Shown: positions 992-56,238, numbered from the stretch's first letter. The stretch is DNA of 64,000 bases from an uncultured Gemmobacter sp. (GCA_964439015.1 CAYTMV010000001.1:34174-98173), one strand, 5' to 3'. The notes: generated from the letters alone by a model not told the origin. Translations and numbers: made by a program.

Positions 992-1717
992 ATGACGCAG
1001 GAAAAGATCAGGCTCCACATAGACCAGCCGCTGGCGACGGGGCAAGCACTGGCCCTGTCAGAGGGGCAGGCCAACTATCTGTTCGCGGTGATGCGCCTGT
1101 CTTTGGGCGCCACGCTGGCGGTGTTCAATGGCCGCGACGGCGTCTGGCGCGCCCGGGTCGAGGCGGCCGGAAAACGCGCCGGCATCCTGCGGGCCGAGCA
1201 ACAGATCGCCCCGCAGATCGTGCCCCCCGACCTTTGGCTGATCTTCGCACCGCTGAAAAAGGCCCGCACCGATTTTCTGGTGGAAAAGGCGGTCGAGCTG
1301 GGGGTGCGGCGCCTCGTGCCGGTCCAGACCCGCTTTACCAATGCCGAGCGGTTGCGGGCCGACAAGGCGCGCGCCCATGCCGTCGAGGCGGCCGAGCAAT
1401 GCGGTGCCTGTTTCGTGCCCGAAGTGGCCGAGTTGCAGCCCTTGGATCGTCTGTTGGCCAATTGGCCGGCGGATCGTCGCATCCTCTGGGGGGACGAGGC
1501 GTTGGCCGGGGTGGCGACGGTTCTTGCCGATGCGCCGCGCGGGCCATGGGCGATCCTGATCGGGCCGGAGGGCGGCTTTTCCGACGAGGAACGTGCCCGC
1601 CTGCGCGCCCATCCGCAGGTGCTGCCGGCCAGCCTTGGCCCGCGGGTGCTGCGCGCCGAAACCGCGGCACTGGCGGCGATCACGCTGTGGCAGGCCAGCC
1701 TCGGGGACTGGGTGTGA
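992..1717 (+). CDS. rsmE: 16S rRNA (uracil1498-N3)-methyltransferase RsmE
   Basis: 241 aa. It has a PUA-like N-terminus and a C-terminal SPOUT signature (ILIGPEGGFSDEE...LGPRVLRAETA). Confidence 0.85.
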   Translation: MTQEKIRLHIDQPLATGQALALSEGQANYLFAVMRLSLGATLAVFNGRDGVWRARVEAAGKRAGILRAEQQIAPQIVPPDLWLIFAPLKKARTDFLVEKAVELGVRRLVPVQTRFTNAERLRADKARAHAVEAAEQCGACFVPEVAELQPLDRLLANWPADRRILWGDEALAGVATVLADAPRGPWAILIGPEGGFSDEERARLRAHPQVLPASLGPRVLRAETAALAAITLWQASLGDWV

Positions 1718-1731
1718 TCCGCCCCGAGGCC

Positions 1732-2238
1732 ATGGCCTTTCTGCACCGTTGGCACGAGGTGGGGCTGTCTGCCCTGGGCGTGGCGCTGGGCCTGTGGCTG
1801 GCGGCCAAGGGCGGGATCGTGTTGCTGCCCATGGGGCTGGCGCTGGCGGCACTGGCCGCGGCCTTCGGCATTCTGGCCTTGCGGCGCCTGCGCTTTGCCG
1901 GGGCAGGCCAGGACGGCCCCGGTCTGGTCGAGATCGACGAGGGCGAAATCCGCTATTTCAGCCCGGATTTCGGCGGGGTCGCGCCGTTGCGCGACGTGAC
2001 CGAGGTGCGGCTGATCGTCCGCGCCGGCCAGCGATTGTGGCGGTTGCGGCTGGATCAGGGCGCGCTGGAGGTGCCCGTGGATGCTGCCGGGGCCGAGGTG
2101 CTGTTTGACGCGCTGTCGGCCCTGCCAGGCATGGATTCGGCCGGGCTGGTCGCCGCGTTGGAGGCGACAGCGCCCGATGCGCTGGGCGCGGTGATCTGGC
2201 GCAGGCCCGTGGCGCGGTTGCAACATCCGCGCGGGTGA
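1732..2238 (+). CDS. hypothetical membrane protein
   Basis: Internal ATG of the 913..2238 frame, just after the rsmE stop. Two hydrophobic helices (LSALGVALGLWLAA, LLPMGLALAALAAAFGILAL) precede a soluble tail. I recognise no family. Confidence 0.45.
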   Translation: MAFLHRWHEVGLSALGVALGLWLAAKGGIVLLPMGLALAALAAAFGILALRRLRFAGAGQDGPGLVEIDEGEIRYFSPDFGGVAPLRDVTEVRLIVRAGQRLWRLRLDQGALEVPVDAAGAEVLFDALSALPGMDSAGLVAALEATAPDALGAVIWRRPVARLQHPRG

Positions 2239-2345
2239 TCTGTGCAACGCTGCACGGATTGCGGGGGCCGCGCGGCAGGTGGCCGTCTTGACACCGGCCC
2301 GCCGCGCCGTCACCACTACGCGTCCCGAAAGAGCGGAGAGTTGCC

Positions 2346-3692
2346 ATGTCCATTCCTCAGTCCGGCGGCGGCCCGATCGAAAGCCTCGATCAGCTGGCGG
2401 CCTATATGGAAAGCGGCTGCAAACCGCCGGCGGATTGGCGCATTGGCACCGAGCATGAGAAGTTCGGCTGGATCGACAATGGGGCTGCGCCCTTGCCCTG
2501 TGACGGCCCGGCCTCGGTCAAGGCGGTGCTGGAGGGGCTGCGCGACAGGTTCGGCTGGCAGCCGGTGCTGGAGCAGGGCGCGCTGATCGGTCTTAGCCGC
2601 AATGGCGCGAATGTCAGCCTCGAGCCGGGCGGCCAGCTGGAGCTGTCGGGCGCACCGCTGACCGACATCCACGCCGTTGCCGCCGAGCTGGATCAGCATC
2701 TGGCCGAGGTGGCGCAGATTGCCGGACCGTTGGGCATCGGCTTTTCGGGCCTCGGCGCCGCACCGATCTGGCGGCACGAGGACATGCCGGTGATGCCCAA
2801 GGGGCGGTATCGGCTGATGACCGAATATATGGGGCGTGTCGGCACGCACGGCACCCAGATGATGTATCGCACCTGCACCGTGCAGGTGAATCTCGACTAT
2901 GCCTCCGAGGCCGACATGGTGAAGAAGCTGCGCGTGGCGCTGGCTTTGCAGCCGGTGGCGACGGCGCTGTTTGCGTCCTCGCCCTTCTTTGAAGGCAAGC
3001 CCAACGGCCACCGCAGCTGGCGCTCGCGGATCTGGCGCTCGCTCGACGATTCGCGCACGGGCATGCTGCCCTTCGCCTTCGAGTCCGGCATGGGCTTTCA
3101 GGCCTATGTGGACTGGGTTCTGGATGTGCCGATGTATTTCGTCTATCGCGACGGCCAATACATTGATGCCCGCGGCCAGAGTTTCCGCGATTTCCTGAAT
3201 GGCAAGCTGCCGGCGCTGCCGGGCGAAAAGCCCACGCTCAGCGATTGGGCCGACCATATGACGACGGTCTTCCCCGAGGCGAGGGTCAAGAAATACATTG
3301 AGATGCGCGGCGCAGATTGCGGCGACCGCGCGCATATCATCGCGCTGCCGGCCTTCTGGGTGGGGCTGATGTATGACCAGACGGCGCTGGATGCAGCCTG
3401 GGATCTGGTCAAGGGCTTTGACGCCGAGACGCGCGAGGGGCTGCGGGTTGCCGCTTCGGTCTCGGCCCTGGCCGGTGAGGCCGGGGGCGTCAAGCTGATG
3501 GATCTGGCGCGCGCCGCCGTGGGCCTGTCGCATGCTGGTCTGGCCGCGCGGGGCCTGGGCGAAGAGCGTTGGCTGGCGCCGCTGGTCGAAAGCCTCGACC
3601 GGGGCGAGGTGCAGGCCGACCGCTATCTCAAGGCGCTGAAAGGCGAATGGGGTGGCGATCTTGGCCGGATCTACGCCGCCACGCAGTTGTAA
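2346..3692 (+). CDS. gshA: glutamate--cysteine ligase, plant/alphaproteobacterial type (GCS2)
   Basis: 448 aa with the N-terminal RIGTEHEKFG motif. Overall similarity is to GSH1-type ligases. Confidence 0.85.
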   Translation: MSIPQSGGGPIESLDQLAAYMESGCKPPADWRIGTEHEKFGWIDNGAAPLPCDGPASVKAVLEGLRDRFGWQPVLEQGALIGLSRNGANVSLEPGGQLELSGAPLTDIHAVAAELDQHLAEVAQIAGPLGIGFSGLGAAPIWRHEDMPVMPKGRYRLMTEYMGRVGTHGTQMMYRTCTVQVNLDYASEADMVKKLRVALALQPVATALFASSPFFEGKPNGHRSWRSRIWRSLDDSRTGMLPFAFESGMGFQAYVDWVLDVPMYFVYRDGQYIDARGQSFRDFLNGKLPALPGEKPTLSDWADHMTTVFPEARVKKYIEMRGADCGDRAHIIALPAFWVGLMYDQTALDAAWDLVKGFDAETREGLRVAASVSALAGEAGGVKLMDLARAAVGLSHAGLAARGLGEERWLAPLVESLDRGEVQADRYLKALKGEWGGDLGRIYAATQL

Positions 3693-3694
3693 GA

Positions 3695-3725
3695 AAAAAG
3701 GCGCGGCAAATGCCGCGCCTTTCTC
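3695..3725. terminator. bidirectional intrinsic terminator between convergent gshA and plsY
   Basis: GC stem GGCGCGG/CCGCGCC is flanked by AAAAAA on one side and TTTCTCTT on the other. Confidence 0.6.
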
Positions 3726-4331
3726 TTACTTCTTGCCGATCTTCGGCTCGGTCCCGGCTTTGAGGCGGGCGATATTGGCGGCGTGACGCCAATAGACCAG
3801 CAGCGTCAGGATCACGCCCAGAATCATCAACCGGCCATGACCCAGCCCCAGCATCCAGAAGGTTGACGATCCGGCTGCCACCAACGCCGACAGCGACGAG
3901 ATGCGGCTCAGCACCGCCACGACCAGCCAGGTGGCACAGCAGGCCACGCCCACCGGCCAGGCCAGCGCCAGAAGGGTGCCCAGAAAGGTCGCAACCCCCT
4001 TGCCGCCCTTGAAATTCAGAAACACCGGGAACAGATGGCCCAGAAAGGCCGACAGTCCGGCCAATTGGGCGGCATCCTCGGCGACCAGCGCGCGGGCAAG
4101 CAGCACCGCGACGCCGCCCTTAGCGGCATCCAGCAGCAGCGTGGCCGCGGCGGCGGCCTTGTTGCCGGTGCGCAGCACATTTGTTGCGCCGATATTGCCC
4201 GAGCCGATCTGGCGCAGGTCGCCCAGCCCCAGAGAGCGGGTGATCAGGATGCCGAAGGGCACCGAGCCCAGCAGATAGGCCAGCGCCGCAACGATCGCCA
4301 GGGTCGCGCCGGGTGTGACCAGTTCAGGCAT
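3726..4331 (-). CDS. plsY: glycerol-3-phosphate acyltransferase PlsY
   Basis: PlsY signature GSVPFG...[12 protein letters not shown]. The start is set at MPELV, whose ATG overlaps the upstream stop as ATGCCTGA. Confidence 0.9.
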
Positions 4332-30503: not shown

Positions 30504-31349
30504 TCAATGCGCCATCAGCACCGGAACTTCGGCATTTTCCAGCATGTTGCGGGTGGCGCCGCCCAGAATCGCCTCGCGGAAGCGCGAGTGGCCATAGGCA
30601 CCCATGACCAGCATGTCGCCATCCAGATCGCGCACGTGACGGTTCAGCACGTCGGAAATCCGCGGCATCGAGCGCGCCAGCACCGAAACCTCGGCCTTCA
30701 CGCCATGCCGCACCAACATCTGGCACAGCGCCCCGCCCGGGTCCGAGCGTTCCGGCCCGTGCGCCGGCGGGTCGATCACCGCGATGTTCACCAATGCGGC
30801 TTTCTTCAGGAAAGGCAGGGCACGGCGCACCGCCACCATCGCCTCGCGGCTCTGGTTCCAGCCGATCACGATCCGCGAGGGCAGGGCGGTACCCATCGGT
30901 TTGTTGGGTAGCACCAGCACCGGGGCCTGACCCTCGAACAGCGCCGCCTCGACAACGGCTTCGGCCTCGGCGCCGACGCCTTCGCCATAAGGTTGGGGCA
31001 GCACTACAAGGTCGGCAAAGCGGGCGCGCAGGGCGACCAGATCCACCAGTCCGCCCATCTGCGCCACCGCACCTTCGACGGCCCAGCGCAAAGTGGCGGG
31101 TTGCGCCTCAAGCGCCTTGCGGGTTGCAGCCTCGGCGGCCTTGGCGTCAGCCTCTGCCCTGTCCATGGCCACCTGAAGCATGACCGCGCCGCCACCCACA
31201 TAGGAATAACCGACCTGTGTGCGATCCAGACCCAACGCCAGCACATCGAGATGAGCGTCCAGCGCCAGCGCCATTCTGGCGGCGGCATCAACACTGGCCT
31301 GAGCCCGGTCGGCCTGAGTCACGATCGTGGAAATCGTCTTGTAGGACAT
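30504..31349 (-). CDS. universal stress protein (tandem UspA domains)
   Basis: 281 aa with two Usp repeats. The C-terminal ATP-binding-like motif is GAYGHSRFREAILGGATR. Confidence 0.8.
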   Translation of the reverse strand: MSYKTISTIVTQADRAQASVDAAARMALALDAHLDVLALGLDRTQVGYSYVGGGAVMLQVAMDRAEADAKAAEAATRKALEAQPATLRWAVEGAVAQMGGLVDLVALRARFADLVVLPQPYGEGVGAEAEAVVEAALFEGQAPVLVLPNKPMGTALPSRIVIGWNQSREAMVAVRRALPFLKKAALVNIAVIDPPAHGPERSDPGGALCQMLVRHGVKAEVSVLARSMPRISDVLNRHVRDLDGDMLVMGAYGHSRFREAILGGATRNMLENAEVPVLMAH

Positions 31350-31411: not shown

Positions 31412-31425
31412 TTGACCTTGATCAA
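31412..31425. promoter_or_regulatory. FNR/FnrL box TTGACCTTGATCAA
   Basis: Matches TTGAT-N4-ATCAA at 13 of the 14 positions, i.e. one mismatch. It lies in the divergent usp-ccoN intergenic region. Confidence 0.7.
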
Positions 31426-31443: not shown

Positions 31444-31457
31444 TTGACATGGATCAA
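31444..31457. promoter_or_regulatory. FNR/FnrL box TTGACATGGATCAA
   Basis: Second box, 32 bp centre-to-centre from the first and about 100 bp upstream of the ccoN ATG. Confidence 0.7.
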
Positions 31458-31554: not shown

Positions 31555-33153
31555 ATGTGGGATTACGTTAAACTGGTCGCGCTGGGGGTCGTGGCGGTCT
31601 TTGCCGCTTACGCCGCCAACAATGCGCATGACCTCGCCTATTTGGTGAACGCGATCGTCGTCATGCTTGCCGCCGCTGCCGCTTTCATCGCGGTTGCGCG
31701 CAACATGGGTTACGAAAAGGTCACCAATGTTAATGAATATAACGACGGTGTCGTGCGCGCCGGCGTGATCGCGACCACCTTCTGGGGGGTCGTGGGCTTT
31801 CTGGTTGGCGTGGTCATCGCGCTGCAGCTGGCCTTCCCGTCGCTGAACATTCCTGGCGTCGAGGGCATCCTGAACTTCGGTCGCCTGCGGCCGCTGCACA
31901 CCTCGGCGGTGATCTTCGCCTTTGGTGGCAACGCGCTGATCATGACCGCGTTCTACGTCGTGCAGCGCACCTCGGCCGTGCGGCTGTGGGGCGGTGGTCT
32001 GGCGTGGTTCGTGTTCTGGGGCTGGCAGGTGATGATCCTTCTTGCCGCGACCTCCTATGTTCTGGGCGGCACGCAGAGCAGGGAATATGCCGAGACCGTC
32101 TGGTATATCGACTGGTGGATCGTGGTGGTCTGGGTTGCCTTCCTGGCGGTGTTCTTCGGCACCATCCTGATGCGGAAAGAGCCCCATATCTACGTCGCCA
32201 ACTGGTTCTACCTTTCGTTCATCATCACCATTGCCATGCTGCATGTGGTGAACAACCTCGCGATCCCGGTCTCGATCTTCTCGTCCAAGTCGGTCTCGCT
32301 GTTCTCGGGCGTGCAGGATGCGATGACGCAGTGGTGGTATGGCCACAATGCGGTGGGCTTCTTCCTGACCGCGGGCTTCCTGGGGATGATGTATTACTTC
32401 GTGCCCAAGCAGGCCGAACGTCCGGTCTTCAGCTACAAGCTGTCGATCATCCACTTCTGGGCGCTGATCTTCCTCTATATCTGGGCCGGTCCGCACCACC
32501 TGCACTACACTGCACTGCCTGAATGGGCCGCGACGCTGGGCATGACCTTCTCGATCATGCTGTGGATGCCGTCCTGGGGTGGCATGATCAACGGCCTGAT
32601 GACGCTGTCGGGCGCCTGGGACAAGCTGCGCACCGACCCGATCATCCGCATGATGGTGGTGTCGATCGGCTTCTACGGCATGTCGACCTTCGAAGGCCCG
32701 ATGATGTCGATCAAGGCCGTGAACTCGCTGTCGCACTACACTGACTGGACCATCGGCCACGTCCACTCCGGCGCGTTGGGCTGGAACGGCATGATCACCT
32801 TCGGTGCGCTGTACTTCCTGACGCCGCGCCTGTGGAACCGCGAACGCCTCTACAGCCTGTCGCTGGTCAGCTGGCACTTCTGGCTCGCCACCATCGGCAT
32901 CGTGCTCTACGCCTCGTCGATGTGGGTGACCGGTATCATGGAAGGCCTGATGTGGCGTGAAGTTGACGCCAACGGCTTCTTGGTCAACGCGTTCGCCGAC
33001 ACCGTGGCCGCGAAATACCCGATGTATGTGGTGCGTGCGCTGGGCGGTCTGATGTTCCTGGCTGGTGCCTGCATCATGGCCTACAACCTGTGGATGACCG
33101 TCAAGGCTGCGCCTGCCAAGGTGCAATCGCCTGCGGCCGTTCCGGCTGAATGA
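31555..33153 (+). CDS. ccoN: cbb3-type cytochrome c oxidase subunit I
   Basis: 532 aa from MWDYVKL. It is a 12+ helix haem-copper oxidase with conserved His ligands and is followed by ccoOQP. Confidence 0.95.
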
Positions 33154-34116: not shown

Positions 34117-35028
34117 ATGTGCGCCAAACAAGTCAAGACCAAGCCGGGTGAGATCGAGACCACCGGCCATTCCTGGGACGGGATCGAGGAATACAACAAC
34201 CCGCTGCCGCGCTGGTGGTTGTGGACCTTTTACCTGACGATCATCTGGTCGATCGGCTACATGATCGTCTATCCGGCCTGGCCACTGGTGACCAAAGCCA
34301 CGGACGGGCTGTGGGGCAGGGAACCTGCCGGCGATACCCGCATGGCGGTTGCCGCCGAAATCAAGCGCTTTGACGACGCGAATGCCGAGATCAAGGCCAA
34401 GCTGGTCGCGGCCGACCTGAACGCGATCATCGGCAATGCCGAGCTGGAAGGCTATGCCAAGTCGGCGGGCGCTGCGGTGTTCCGCACCTGGTGCGCACAG
34501 TGCCACGGTTCGGGCGGCGCTGGCGTGCAGGCGGGCGGCTATCCCAACCTGCTGGACGATGACTGGATCTGGGGCGGCGATATCGAGTCGATCCATACGA
34601 CCATCGCCCATGGCATCCGTAACCCTGAAGACCCGGATGCCCGGTACTCGCAAATGCCGAGCTTTGGTGTCGACGGCCTGCTTGAGCCGGCCCAGATCGA
34701 CGACGTGACCGAGTATGTGCTGAAGATCTCGGGTCAGGAAGCTGACGCTGCCAAGGCCGCTGCCGGTGAGGTCGTGTTTGCCGAAAACTGCGTGGCTTGC
34801 CACGGCGAGGCCGGTCAGGGTGATCGCCTGCAGGGCGCGCCGAACCTGACGGATCCGATCTGGCTCTATGGCGGCGACCGTGAAACCGTGCGCGCGTCGA
34901 TCCATCAGGCCCGCTTCGGTGTGATGCCGTCGTGGTCCTGGGCGCCGCCCGGTGGCCAGTCCCGCCTGACGGAAGACGAGATCCGCTCGGTGGCGGTCTA
35001 CGTCCACAGCCTGGGTGGCGGCGAGTAA
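34117..35028 (+). CDS. ccoP: cbb3-type cytochrome c oxidase subunit III (dihaem)
   Basis: 303 aa with the [17 protein letters not shown] motif and two CxxCH motifs (CAQCH, CVACH). Confidence 0.95.
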
Positions 35029-35055
35029 ACGCGCCTCTCACCTGAATCGCATCAG

Positions 35056-35090
35056 AAAGGCCCCCCATAATCGCGGGGGCCTTTCGCGTT
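35056..35090 (+). terminator. intrinsic terminator after ccoP
   Basis: AAAGGCCCCC-loop-GGGGGCCTTT followed by CGCGTTTG. Confidence 0.65.
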
Positions 35091-35157
35091 TGAGATTCCG
35101 CCATGGCGTCGTGACGAAGGCCAAAAGGCGATCAGAGGGGCATTCGCGCCCGCGCGA

Positions 35158-35171
35158 TTGATATGGATCAA
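35158..35171. promoter_or_regulatory. perfect FNR box TTGATATGGATCAA with class-II geometry
   Basis: The box centre is 41.5 bp upstream of the start predicted from the -10 hexamer TATGAT (35194..35199). Confidence 0.7.
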
Positions 35172-35205
35172 CGGCGGCGCTCCAAACGCGTCCTATGATG
35201 AAAAC

Positions 35206-35286
35206 TGACCTGAGGGGCTGCCCTTCGGTCCGGCACCGGCGCCCCATCCTGTTCGCGCGTTTCCTGGGGGGGCCGGTGCCTTTTTC
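35206..35286 (+). ncRNA. candidate FNR-dependent small RNA or terminated leader
   Basis: The predicted TSS is about 35206. A 9+4 bp GC stem (35232..35245 with 35067-equivalent arm 35267..35280) is followed by TTTTT (35281..35285). No credible ORF starts downstream of the TSS. Confidence 0.35.
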
Positions 35287-35371
35287 ATTCCGTCTTGCCG
35301 TGTCTGATGGGGGCGCCCAGCGCGGTGCGGCTAAAATGCCGCATGGAATTGTTGTATATCCAATTCTAATT

Positions 35372-35385
35372 TTGATGCATGTCAA
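35372..35385. promoter_or_regulatory. FNR box TTGATGCATGTCAA upstream of ccoG
   Basis: One mismatch to consensus. A -10-like TATCAA (35409..35414) places the box centre within 1 bp of -41.5. Confidence 0.65.
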
Positions 35386-35506
35386 AGTTGAGACCGCCAC
35401 CGATCCGCTATCAAGCATCATAGGCGGTCTCGACCCGCCAGATTTCAAGGGATGACTCGCGGCCCACCCCCGCGCTGCCAGCCAGAACGCCAGTCGGAGA
35501 ATCTCC

Positions 35507-36934
35507 TTGTCCAACCCCGAATCCCAGCCCGAAATCCTCTACAAAACACGCGAGCCGGTTTTCCCCAAGCGCGTCAAGGGCACCTTTCGTAGTCTGAAAT
35601 GGTGGCTGATGGCGCTGATGTTAGGCGCCTATTACCTTGTGCCGTTCATCCGCTGGGATCGTGGCCCGGCACTGCCGGACCAGGCGGTGCTGATCGACAT
35701 GGCCAACCGCCGGTTTTTCTTTTTCATGATCGAGATATGGCCGCATGAGTTTTATTTCGTGGCCGGGCTTCTGATCATGGCGGGGCTGGGGCTGTTTCTG
35801 TTCACCTCGGCGGCCGGGCGGGTCTGGTGCGGCTATGCCTGCCCGCAGACCGTCTGGACCGACCTGATGATTCTGGTCGAACGCTGGGTGGAGGGAGACC
35901 GCAATGCGCGGCTGCGGTTGCATCGTCAGGGCTGGGATTTCGAAAAGATCCGCAAGCGGGCGCTGAAATGGACGCTGTGGCTGCTGATCGCCGTGGCGAC
36001 GGGCGGCGCCTGGGTCTTCTACTTCACCGACGCGCCCACGCTGGCCCGCGATCTTGTGGCGGGCACGGCGCATCCGATTGCCTACACGACCATCGCAGTC
36101 CTGACCGCGACCACATTCCTGTTCGGCGGCTTTTTCCGCGAGCAGGTTTGCATTTATGCCTGCCCCTGGCCGCGTATCCAGGCGGCGATGATGGACGAGG
36201 ACACGCTGACCATCGGCTATCGTGAATGGCGGGGCGAGCCGCGCGGCAAGCTGGCCAAGGGGGCCGTGGCCGAAGGGCAGGGTGATTGCATCGATTGCAT
36301 GGCTTGCGTGAACGTCTGCCCGATGGGTATCGACATCCGCAATGGCCAGCAGCTGGCCTGCATCACCTGCGGTCTTTGCATCGACGCCTGCAATGAGATC
36401 ATGGACAAGATCGGCAAGCCGCGCGACCTGATCGGCTACATGGCCTTGACCGACGAGGTGCGCGAGCGCAAGGGCCTGCCGCCGAAATCGGTTTGGAAGC
36501 ACGTGTTCCGGCCGCGCACGATCCTTTACACTACACTGTGGGCGGCGGTCGGCATCGGCCTGACGGTCGCGCTGTTCCTGCGTTCGGATATCGACATTAA
36601 CCTCACTCCGGTGCGCAACCCGACCTTCGTGACGCTGTCGGACGGCACGATCCGCAACACCTATGAACTGCGGCTGCGCAACAAGCTGGGTTCTGAAGCA
36701 GAATATGTGATCTCGGTGGACGGTGCCGATCTTGCCGTGCGGCTGGAAGGCGAAGATGATGCCACCGTCGCCGTGCCGGCAAACGAGATGCTGTCGCAGC
36801 GCGTCTATCTCGAGGCCGCGCCGGGAACCCCGGCTGCCGAGGGTGACCGGACCGACGTGACGATCTGGGTGGCAAGCCCGGACGGCACCACGCGGGTGCA
36901 GGCGGGCACGGTCTTCAACGGCAAGGCGCATTGA
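35507..36934 (+). CDS. ccoG: cbb3 oxidase accessory protein CcoG (RdxB-type polyferredoxin)
   Basis: 475 aa with a TTG start and GGAGA RBS. It has TM helices plus two 4Fe-4S motifs (CIDCMACVNVCP, CITCGLCIDAC). Confidence 0.9.
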   Translation: MSNPESQPEILYKTREPVFPKRVKGTFRSLKWWLMALMLGAYYLVPFIRWDRGPALPDQAVLIDMANRRFFFFMIEIWPHEFYFVAGLLIMAGLGLFLFTSAAGRVWCGYACPQTVWTDLMILVERWVEGDRNARLRLHRQGWDFEKIRKRALKWTLWLLIAVATGGAWVFYFTDAPTLARDLVAGTAHPIAYTTIAVLTATTFLFGGFFREQVCIYACPWPRIQAAMMDEDTLTIGYREWRGEPRGKLAKGAVAEGQGDCIDCMACVNVCPMGIDIRNGQQLACITCGLCIDACNEIMDKIGKPRDLIGYMALTDEVRERKGLPPKSVWKHVFRPRTILYTTLWAAVGIGLTVALFLRSDIDINLTPVRNPTFVTLSDGTIRNTYELRLRNKLGSEAEYVISVDGADLAVRLEGEDDATVAVPANEMLSQRVYLEAAPGTPAAEGDRTDVTIWVASPDGTTRVQAGTVFNGKAH

Positions 36935-55023: not shown

Positions 55024-56238
55024 TCAGGCCGCGCTTGGCACGCGCCGACGCAGGCCCCGCAGGCTGCGATAGGCGATGAACGCGCCGCCAAGCGTGGCGA
55101 GGATCAGCAGGTTATTCACATGCCCGACAATGACATAGCTGCCATCCGCGATCAGCGCGCCCCCAAGGCTGGGCCCGACGAACAGGCCGACCATCAGCGC
55201 GCTGCCTGCCGCGGCCGCCACCCGGCCCTCCACATCCATCTCGGCGGCAAGGGCCGTCAGATAGGACAGGCAGAAGAAATAGCTGCCAACCCAGAACAGC
55301 GCCGAAATCGAATAGAGCGTGGCATCATTGGACGCCTGGCTGACCAGATAGGTCACCAGACCCGAGGCGATGATTCCGACGACCAGTGGCAGACGCAGGC
55401 CAAACCGCGCCCCGATCACCGTTGCCAGCAGCGGACCGACAAGCCCGAACAGCGCCGAGTTCGCCAGAAGCGCGCCAACCTCGGCTTCGCTCAGTCCCGC
55501 TTCCATGCCGGTCGTGGCGATGAACGCCCACGAAATGGTGTCGCGCAACGAGAAGCAGAAGAAGGCGATCAGGATGGCGATGCCGCCCATGTCGAGGATC
55601 GAGAAGTGGCCACGATCGGTCTGGTGCGCCTTCACGAACTCCTGGGTCGGTGCGGCTTTCGGCAGAAACACCAGCAAAGGCGACAGGACGGCAACGGTGC
55701 CGGCCAATGCCAGATAGACCCCGGTTTGCCCGTAGGCCTCGCTGATCGGGCCGAAGATCCGGGAAATGACCGCCATCACGAAGACGAACAGCACGGTCAT
55801 GTGGCCGGCAAACTTTTCGGGCTGCTCTGCATTGGCGACGGTTGCATTGCCGGTGGCCAGCGCCAGACCCGCGCCCAGACCAGCGCAGGTCCGCAGCACC
55901 ATCAGCGACTCATAGCTGCCCCAGATGGCGCTGGCGAGGTTGGCCAGGACGACGATGGCCGCGCCTGCCATCGCAACCGTGCGGCGGTTGATGACCGCGA
56001 CCCGCGGCGCAAGCAGCACCGAAGTCACGAAGACGCCGGCAAATTCCAATGTGCTGAGCAAACCGGCCTGGGCCTCGTCAAGGCCGAGGCTGGCCATGTT
56101 GGCACCCACCATGAAGGGCAGCGCGATCAGCGCCAGCAATCCGGTGCCATAGGCAGCGGCAAAGGCGGCCAGCAAGGTGCCCCAGTTGTTGGGCATCAAA
56201 TCCCTGAGCCCTCCGGGGGCGAGGGGTCTTTCGGTCAT
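55024..56238 (-). CDS. MFS transporter
   Basis: 404 aa from MTERPLAP with a GGGAGA RBS and a 12-helix profile. The longer ORF call (to 56313) would swallow the sigma-54 promoter. Confidence 0.75.
   Translation of the reverse strand: MTERPLAPGGLRDLMPNNWGTLLAAFAAAYGTGLLALIALPFMVGANMASLGLDEAQAGLLSTLEFAGVFVTSVLLAPRVAVINRRTVAMAGAAIVVLANLASAIWGSYESLMVLRTCAGLGAGLALATGNATVANAEQPEKFAGHMTVLFVFVMAVISRIFGPISEAYGQTGVYLALAGTVAVLSPLLVFLPKAAPTQEFVKAHQTDRGHFSILDMGGIAILIAFFCFSLRDTISWAFIATTGMEAGLSEAEVGALLANSALFGLVGPLLATVIGARFGLRLPLVVGIIASGLVTYLVSQASNDATLYSISALFWVGSYFFCLSYLTALAAEMDVEGRVAAAAGSALMVGLFVGPSLGGALIADGSYVIVGHVNNLLILATLGGAFIAYRSLRGLRRRVPSAA

Follow-up and report, generated by a model that had tools for sequence, protein, structure and literature searches.

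Between ccoP and ccoG, the genome of an uncultured Gemmobacter sp. carries a short segment that begins with an FNR box and ends with a GC-rich hairpin, which raises the question of whether the segment is an oxygen-controlled small-RNA gene, a control element of one of the two neighboring operons, or an ordinary terminator. An earlier note on this DNA had proposed an FNR-activated small RNA, or a terminated leader, of about 80 nt. The window that we analyzed is the whole stretch of 64,000 nt (GCA_964439015.1 CAYTMV010000001.1:34174-98173), and all positions are counted from its first letter. Based on Pfam matches in the window, ccoN, ccoO, ccoQ, and ccoP lie upstream of the segment (~31.5 to 35.0 kb), ccoG, ccoH, and ccoI lie downstream, and a usp gene (30504 to 31349, minus strand) is divergent from ccoN. 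The features of the segment and its borders are collected in Table 1. A terminator hairpin behind ccoP, at which only subthreshold, terminator-like Rfam alignments were found, lies between ccoP and the small-RNA unit.

Table 1. Features of the ccoP-ccoG interval and its flanking genes, in window coordinates
Feature	Position	Strand	Description
ccoP, last gene of ccoNOQP	34117-35028	+	Pfam FixP_N + Cytochrome_CBB3
ccoNOQP terminator hairpin	35056-35092	+	GGCCCCC...GGGGGCC, then TTTCGCGTTT; read from the sequence
FNR box 1	35158-35171	.	TTGATATGGATCAA, perfect; center 35164.5, 41.5 bp upstream of the predicted start
-10 hexamer TATGAT	35194-35199	+	Predicted start ~35206, 7 nt downstream
Hairpin 1	35207-35230	+	GACCUGAGGGG-CUGC-CCCUUCGGUC; structure conserved, sequence variable
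Hairpin 2 (fits the HRC-8-4 motif)	35232-35280	+	13-bp covarying stem, 21-nt apical loop
Loop core	35248-35264	+	CCUGUUCGCGCGUUUCC, 17 nt, near-invariant; two CCU motifs around a CGCGCG palindrome
U-tract	35281-35285	+	UUUUU directly after hairpin 2; the window reads UUUUUC
FNR box 2	35372-35385	.	TTGATGCATGTCAA, one mismatch; predicted ccoG promoter
ccoG -10 TATCAA	35409-35414		Predicted start ~35420
ccoG, first gene of ccoGHIS	35507-36934	+	Pfam Fer4_18 + FixG_C

Class-II FNR-dependent promoters have a TTGAT-N4-ATCAA box centered near -41.5 and lack a -35 element. The predicted promoter in front of the segment (promoter 1) follows this layout: the perfect box, the TATGAT hexamer, and the 41.5-bp spacing to the start that the hexamer implies could all be read where the earlier note had placed them, and the box, TTGATATGGATCAA, is the sole perfect TTGATNNNNATCAA within the 64 kb. 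When one mismatch was allowed, the window contained six FNR boxes (0.93 expected; six were reached in 0 of 100 shuffles), four of which are at cco promoters, namely two upstream of ccoN, box 1, and one upstream of ccoG. The two boxes upstream of ccoN (TTGACCTTGATCAA at 31412 to 31425 and TTGACATGGATCAA at 31444 to 31457; one mismatch each, 32 bp apart) sit between the divergent usp gene and ccoN. Since the listed start of the ccoN open reading frame (ORF) (TTG, 31444) falls inside the second of these boxes, the true ccoN start lies further downstream. The other one-mismatch FNR-like boxes are found at 56186 to 56199 (TTGTTGGGCATCAA) and, inside ccoN, at 32701 to 32714 (ATGATGTCGATCAA). A generic sigma-70 promoter and terminator scan of the window made no call at the element, which is expected because class-II FNR promoters have no -35 element and the 21-nt loop of the hairpin exceeds the scanner limit of 8.

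The RNA from 35206 to 35290 folds at -45.1 kcal/mol (z = -3.6), and 0 of 200 shuffles folded as well. The long GC hairpin followed by TTTTT that the earlier note described is present as hairpin 2, and this part of its fold stands; the 5' hairpin directly before it (hairpin 1) had been overlooked. Together with its U-tract, hairpin 2 of the window looks like an intrinsic terminator, and the predicted RNA would be ~81 nt long (35206 to 35286). The two CCU motifs of the loop resemble anti-Shine-Dalgarno sequences.

Conservation was examined at 80 loci around CcoG relatives, taken from contigs of one genome per species, with CcoG proteins 69 to 79% identical to that of the window; the CcoG of the window has at most 79% identity to Gemmobacter and Rhodobacter proteins. 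The loci belong to Gemmobacter, Tabrizicola, Thioclava, Pseudorhodobacter, Cereibacter, and related genera, all Paracoccaceae/Rhodobacterales. Among these 80 loci, blastn found only positions 35221 to 35290 conserved within the ccoP-ccoG spacer (~76 to 96% nucleotide identity, 36 loci). Comparison of the spacers revealed no conserved flanking sequence outside the hairpin that could form an alternative pairing. A first set of 37 genome copies, gathered by blastn similarity to the element region and aligned independently with MAFFT (alignment A1), had 94% of its cells paired, versus 43 to 54% in slid controls; eight pairs change on both sides, and the covariation score was reached by 0 of 500 shuffles. 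Across these 37 copies, the loop core CCUGUUCGCGCGUUUCC shows little or no variation.

A search with a covariance model (R1) detected 40 copies near ccoG, including the diverged copies of Cereibacter johrii and C. azotoformans, and the element of the window scored 80.9 bits against it. Scanning metagenomes for the 17-nt core and filtering with R1 added 33 further copies. The set compared below holds 75 copies from Rhodobacterales genomes and metagenomes. In the 74 copies aligned to the model, compensatory changes occur in all 13 stem pairs and 95.9% of cells are paired, compared with 42 to 50% for slid partner columns (observed values reached by 0 of 500 shuffles), in an alignment that was fitted to the model and is hence biased toward the structure. 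Every position of the loop core is at least 92% conserved in the same alignment, in which the metagenome copies carry the core by construction, so that the 37-copy genome alignment is the less biased test. The conservation and covariation in relatives that the earlier note had suggested looking for are therefore present, and the comparison indicates that the segment is a conserved structured RNA on the plus strand. That strand is indicated alike by the G-U pairs, by such U-tracts as the copies have, and by RNA ends with poly(A) tails.

The element was found in 40 of the 80 ccoG loci; in roughly the other half, none lies near ccoG. Degenerate look-alikes, not scored by the model, were seen in the ccoP-ccoG spacers of four loci (L012, L017, L079, and L075), for example, GCGTTCGCGCGCGTCCC in L012 and CGTTCGCGCGTGTTTGC in L079, the latter ~90 nt after an FNR box. 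Given these look-alikes in unscored loci, the family is probably wider than 75 copies.

The earlier note had recognized no known RNA at this locus. The hairpin fits the HRC-8-4 motif, which was described from 160 representatives found only in Rhodobacterales (Brewer et al. 2021, RNA Biol 18:2417, PMC8632094). According to the accessible text of that paper, HRC-8-4 occupies the interval between ccoNOQP and ccoGHIS; its upstream neighbor is usually ccoP and its downstream neighbor ccoG, and hvrB or other genes are sometimes inserted. Its shape is that of a terminator-like stem whose tip carries conserved nucleotides. The motif is an orphan without an assigned function, for which the authors speculate about an ON riboswitch embedded in a terminator, by analogy with riboswitches of the HMP-PP and guanidine-IV types, or about HvrB binding (PMC8632094, accessible text). 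Our element agrees with the motif in taxon (all 80 ccoG relatives, including the 40 with the element, are Paracoccaceae/Rhodobacterales), in location (between ccoP and ccoG in the window, with the same context in genome and metagenome copies), and in shape (the 13-bp covarying stem, the near-invariant loop core, and the UUUUU of the window). The element is assigned to the motif by these three features, as given in the accessible text. Nothing in the accessible text of the HRC-8-4 paper refers to FNR boxes, to a split between 3' untranslated region (3'UTR) copies and copies with their own promoter, or to expression data (PMC8632094). A full-text literature search found no further papers naming HRC-8-4, and literature searches found no named small RNA at ccoP-rdxB or ccoP-ccoG in Rhodobacter, Paracoccus, or Dinoroseobacter. 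The only small-RNA promoters reported from R. sphaeroides FnrL chromatin immunoprecipitation sequencing (ChIP-seq) are those of RSs0019 and RSs2461. Rfam 15 gave no match on the element at gathering scores in the window, and a permissive scan (E up to 10) of 35000 to 35520 placed no match on it.

The 75 copies fall largely into two classes, a split of HRC-8-4-like copies that seems to be a new result. Type B comprises 47 of the 75 copies; these lack an FNR box, their model match begins 26 to 61 nt behind the ccoP coding sequence, and a short GC hairpin separates the conserved hairpin from the ccoP stop codon. Type A copies (22 of 75, the window included) are at least 186 nt from ccoP, kilobases off, or have no ccoP in reach, and all 22 have an FNR box centered 75.5 to 90.5 nt upstream of the conserved core. 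FNR box, class-II-spaced -10, and two-hairpin RNA are kept together as a unit in the 22 copies. The class-II spacing recurs across relatives: an A is found at box end +24 in 19 of the 22 type A copies and a T at box end +28 in 11 of 22, positions that correspond to -11 and -7 of a -10 hexamer with a start 41.5 bp from the box center. Across type A copies, the opposite side of the palindromic box is GC-rich and carries no -10 signal, and a minus-strand promoter from the box was rejected for this reason. A 5' hairpin of variable sequence directly precedes the conserved hairpin in most copies of both types. The remaining copies are two truncated and four odd ones: in L109 the box is at 130.5, and no box accompanies L148, L158, or the second of the L090 copies. 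Tandem arrangements were found in L156, where a type B copy is followed by an FNR box (TTGACGCAAATCAA) and then by a type A copy (element-oriented positions 2302 to 2361 and 2482 to 2541), and in L090 (3309 to 3371 and 3630 to 3691), where the second copy has no recognizable FNR box within 140 nt.

FNR appears to reach the RNA by two routes. A 41-fold FnrL ChIP peak has been found at ccoNOQP in R. sphaeroides (PMC4263372), and two boxes lie upstream of ccoN in the window. Since ccoNOQP is itself FNR activated, the RNA would be FNR controlled either way. Comparison of the copies by position shows that in most lineages the RNA forms the 3' end of the ccoNOQP mRNA, which FNR activates, and that in the Gemmobacter/Tabrizicola-like lineage, to which the window belongs, it is uncoupled from ccoP and carries its own FNR box. 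The arrangement of the 75 copies suggests that the RNA is always placed under FNR control, via ccoNOQP or via its own box. That the box is missing exactly where the element adjoins FNR-activated ccoNOQP (47 copies) argues that selection keeps the RNA under FNR. The FNR control that the earlier note had proposed for a short RNA is well supported by this comparison, whereas its trans action and clean termination stay proposals.

The terminator role that had been given to hairpin 2 also needs to be broadened. A U-tract (at least five T's in the 8 nt after the stem) follows only 22 of the 75 copies, and 32 of the other 53 have a separate terminator-like hairpin behind the element, within ~90 nt. 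Judging from its conservation, hairpin 2 is a functional module and more than a mere terminator.

The genes after the element vary. The second FNR box that the earlier note had assigned to ccoG is present in the window, and an FNR box 64.5 to 128.5 nt upstream of ccoG and downstream of the element was found in all 40 genome loci. Pfam matches placed a Phd/YefM antitoxin gene and a PIN-domain toxin gene between the RNA and ccoG in L009 (2271 to 2887) and in the same region of L023, and a convergent gene for a DUF2270 membrane protein in L008 (2112 to 2831, minus strand) and L070 (929 to 1636, minus strand). In L070, a LysR-type regulator gene (1970 to 2869, plus strand) also lies between the RNA and ccoG, possibly an instance of the association with hvrB that Brewer et al. 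described.

Transcript evidence came from assembled contigs of coded runs (X numbers), in which contig depth is a crude measure, and from one run of raw reads. For Cereibacter, the contigs share 90 to 99% identity with L050, a C. johrii locus, and with L077. In run X23, word depth was 46 over ccoP, 1,053 to 4,151 over L050:2795-2853, and 24 downstream, so that a ~70-nt hairpin fragment stood 25 to 90 times above its flanks; X23 was the sole library with such strong accumulation of a short species. Several X23 contigs have nontemplated poly(A) after L050:2859/2860, which is 2 to 3 nt past the stem, and X47 has poly(A) after L077:2862. Contigs of ccoP run unbroken into the hairpin and end there in X49 (at 2859) and X48 (at 2850). 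Taken together, the ends in these four runs indicate that Cereibacter ccoNOQP transcripts end at the hairpin and that a ~70-nt fragment can accumulate, which seems to be a new result. The high-depth unitig of X23 starts at ~L050:2791, within the 5' arm of hairpin 1 and toward its apex; this start, away from the base of the hairpin, suggests endonucleolytic processing of the ccoP 3'UTR. A metatranscriptome contig from X2 has a similar adapter-flanked start, 13 nt before hairpin 2. Most Cereibacter runs gave long contigs of flat depth, which hold no local information. The short transcript expected by the earlier note has a counterpart in Cereibacter RNA-seq, a stable short RNA with its end immediately behind the hairpin; only in Cereibacter was a discrete stable transcript seen. 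In the metatranscriptome X2, the element of related species had a depth of 32 to 48, versus ~5 for the flanks.

For the window itself, the contigs give a mixed picture. In two activated-sludge metatranscriptomes (X1 and X6), ccoP contigs end at 35048 to 35058 and depth is zero over 35070 to 35217, which is compatible with a class-II FNR promoter; with X9 included, ccoP contig ends fall within 35048 to 35102, at the ccoP terminator. In X6, a contig of ccoG has its first position at 35429, close to the start that box 2 predicts (~35420). The claim that promoter 1 drives only the short RNA fared less well. An exact-match X1 contig (35291 to 35544) extends into ccoG from a point 5 nt past the U-tract, upstream of the predicted box 2 start. 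Read-through with subsequent processing, a different start, or a break in assembly at a hairpin conserved among several species could each account for it. Window-exact contigs from wastewater runs (35144 to 35325, 35151 to 35300, and 35185 to 35417; depth 2 to 9), whose origin from RNA or DNA is uncertain, cross the predicted start and the U-tract; an RNA origin would imply upstream starts or read-through and would argue against a clean 81-nt unit. The raw-read run contributed a single read pair, on the conserved hairpin only.

Several explanations of the element can be weighed against these results. A plain terminator next to a fortuitous FNR-like palindrome, or a small coding ORF, might be considered, since hairpins are plentiful in GC-rich genomes and ORFs overlap the region on either strand. 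This reading is effectively refuted by the strong covariation, the order-wide conservation, and the recurrence of the FNR box at fixed spacing, and a covarying stem with an invariant loop is the pattern of an RNA rather than of a coding sequence. Of the two ORFs, the one on the plus strand (35195 to 35455, 86 amino acids) starts upstream of the predicted transcription start, has no Pfam match, and is not conserved, and neither the G-U pairs nor the stem covariation can be reconciled with the 31-codon minus-strand ORF; both ORFs were rejected. A more serious proposal is that of a cis-acting attenuator that gates read-through from ccoNOQP or promoter 1 into ccoGHIS or hvrB, with the short RNA as a by-product. 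The terminator-like stem with its conserved tip (PMC8632094, accessible text), a likeness shared with riboswitches of the HMP-PP and guanidine-IV types, speaks for it, as does the constant placement of the type A element 124 to 220 nt upstream of ccoG, and both the X1 contig and those crossing the U-tract are compatible with partial read-through. However, because U-tracts are so few and separate terminators follow many of the remaining copies, the hairpin cannot be a switchable terminator in most copies. Unlike riboswitches of the HMP-PP and guanidine-IV types, the element has no conserved partner for an alternative fold, its flanks being unconserved, and the genes behind it vary and are sometimes convergent (DUF2270) or unrelated (toxin-antitoxin), while ccoG has a predicted FNR promoter of its own in all 40 genome loci. 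The rarity of U-tracts, the missing pairing partner, and the varying downstream genes weaken the case for a riboswitch or attenuator, which we regard as improbable.

It is also conceivable that the element serves the ccoNOQP mRNA from which most copies would be transcribed, as a 3'-end element that mainly terminates the message or blocks 3' exonucleases, and that stabilizes or localizes the mRNA, for example, through a docking protein. The abundant fragment would then be a decay remnant, and the copies with their own promoter would be secondary or relics. Such a role would suit the 47 copies directly behind ccoP and the Cereibacter ccoP contigs that continue into the hairpin and end there, and a 3' end 2 to 3 nt past the stem, where no U-tract follows, is typical of exonucleolytic trimming. 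It does not explain why 22 copies with no upstream mRNA retain the invariant loop and covarying stem as well as hairpin 1 and an FNR promoter at constant spacing, nor does it explain the tandem second copies in L156 and L090. The window also has a separate ccoP terminator, and a mere stability hairpin needs no invariant 17-nt loop. We consider this role unlikely.

The reading that we prefer, with somewhat better than even confidence, is that the segment is a separate FNR-controlled small-RNA gene of ~81 nt (35206 to 35286) whose product acts in trans. A trans-acting small RNA under FNR control is favored by the FNR box that ccoG has for itself at all 40 loci and by the changing identity of the next gene, and it is the FNR wiring, the separate promoter of ccoG, and the stable short RNA in Cereibacter that together shift the favored reading from a riboswitch to a small RNA. 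Under oxygen limitation, promoter 1 of the window would fire and yield an ~81-nt RNA ended by its own hairpin, so that the conserved hairpin would double as an intrinsic terminator. The stable RNA would then act in trans through its exposed loop as the working surface, in the likeliest mode by base pairing of the CCU motifs and the GC core with the ribosome-binding regions of mRNAs; alternatively, a protein may dock on the loop. At 17 nt, the invariant loop is longer than the usual small-RNA seed, and a protein or ligand site fits equally.

Predictions of pairing partners gave no target for the FnrS-like trans action to which the earlier note had alluded, either in the window or in 41 cco loci. 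The best duplexes between the loop and RNA from both strands of the window had energies of -29 to -31 kcal/mol, equal to those of shuffled loops, and loop-mRNA duplexes in the 41 cco loci did not rise above the shuffled-loop background. Clustered duplex sites in the ccoG and ccoI coding regions were rejected as targets because they are not conserved between genera, and one apparent hit in the 41 loci was rejected as the ccoG terminator. A ccoI coding segment, CUGGGCCGCGCGAACUGGAUCGGGG, at ~+3514 from the ccoG start in L067, L069, and L068, shows partial complementarity to the loop (-34 to -39 kcal/mol); this segment is found in some genera only, is absent from the window, and is probably a chance match in GC-rich coding sequence.

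FnrS of Escherichia coli and AniS of Neisseria are FNR-activated small RNAs that act in trans, and the mechanism proposed here would share their functional logic, a short RNA from a class-II FNR promoter (here a predicted one) under oxygen limitation, without any sequence relationship to either. Neither sequence nor structure is similar, and Rfam cmscan gave no match to the FnrS family (RF01796) or to AniS, at gathering scores or at E up to 10. The candidate seed is in the loop of a 3' hairpin rather than in a single-stranded 5' region, and, in contrast to FnrS and AniS, most copies have no U-tail and many come from a 3'UTR. In this last respect, the element resembles 3'UTR-derived small RNAs such as NarS of Salmonella and SorX, PcrX, and UdsC of Rhodobacter sphaeroides, since the type B RNA is an mRNA 3' end from which a short stable species accumulates. 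It differs from them in that 3'UTR copies alternate with independent genes under the same regulator, FNR. As a motif, the element is already known (HRC-8-4); as an FNR-regulated small RNA, it would be new and unrelated to FnrS and AniS.

More tentatively, and as a reading that we hold less likely than not, HRC-8-4 RNA may be the low-oxygen riboregulator of the whole Rhodobacterales, whose loop has an equally conserved partner in mRNAs, a protein, or a ligand. Such a partner, if a protein or ligand, would be tied to the biogenesis or signaling of the cbb3 oxidase. Within a single order, the family would then document how an RNA derived from a 3'UTR turns into an independent gene without a change of transcription factor, with tandem intermediates such as L156 as steps on the way.

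The high-affinity cbb3 oxidase is central to redox signaling (PrrBA), to the control of photosynthesis genes, and to denitrification in Rhodobacterales. The orphan motif HRC-8-4 now gains a concrete regulatory context, that of oxygen limitation through FNR/FnrL, and the presence of both 3'UTR-derived copies and independent ones makes the family informative about evolution. If the small RNA is confirmed, Rhodobacterales would have a cbb3 oxidase-linked counterpart of FnrS, and the family would be a clean example of 3'UTR-derived small RNAs becoming independent genes.
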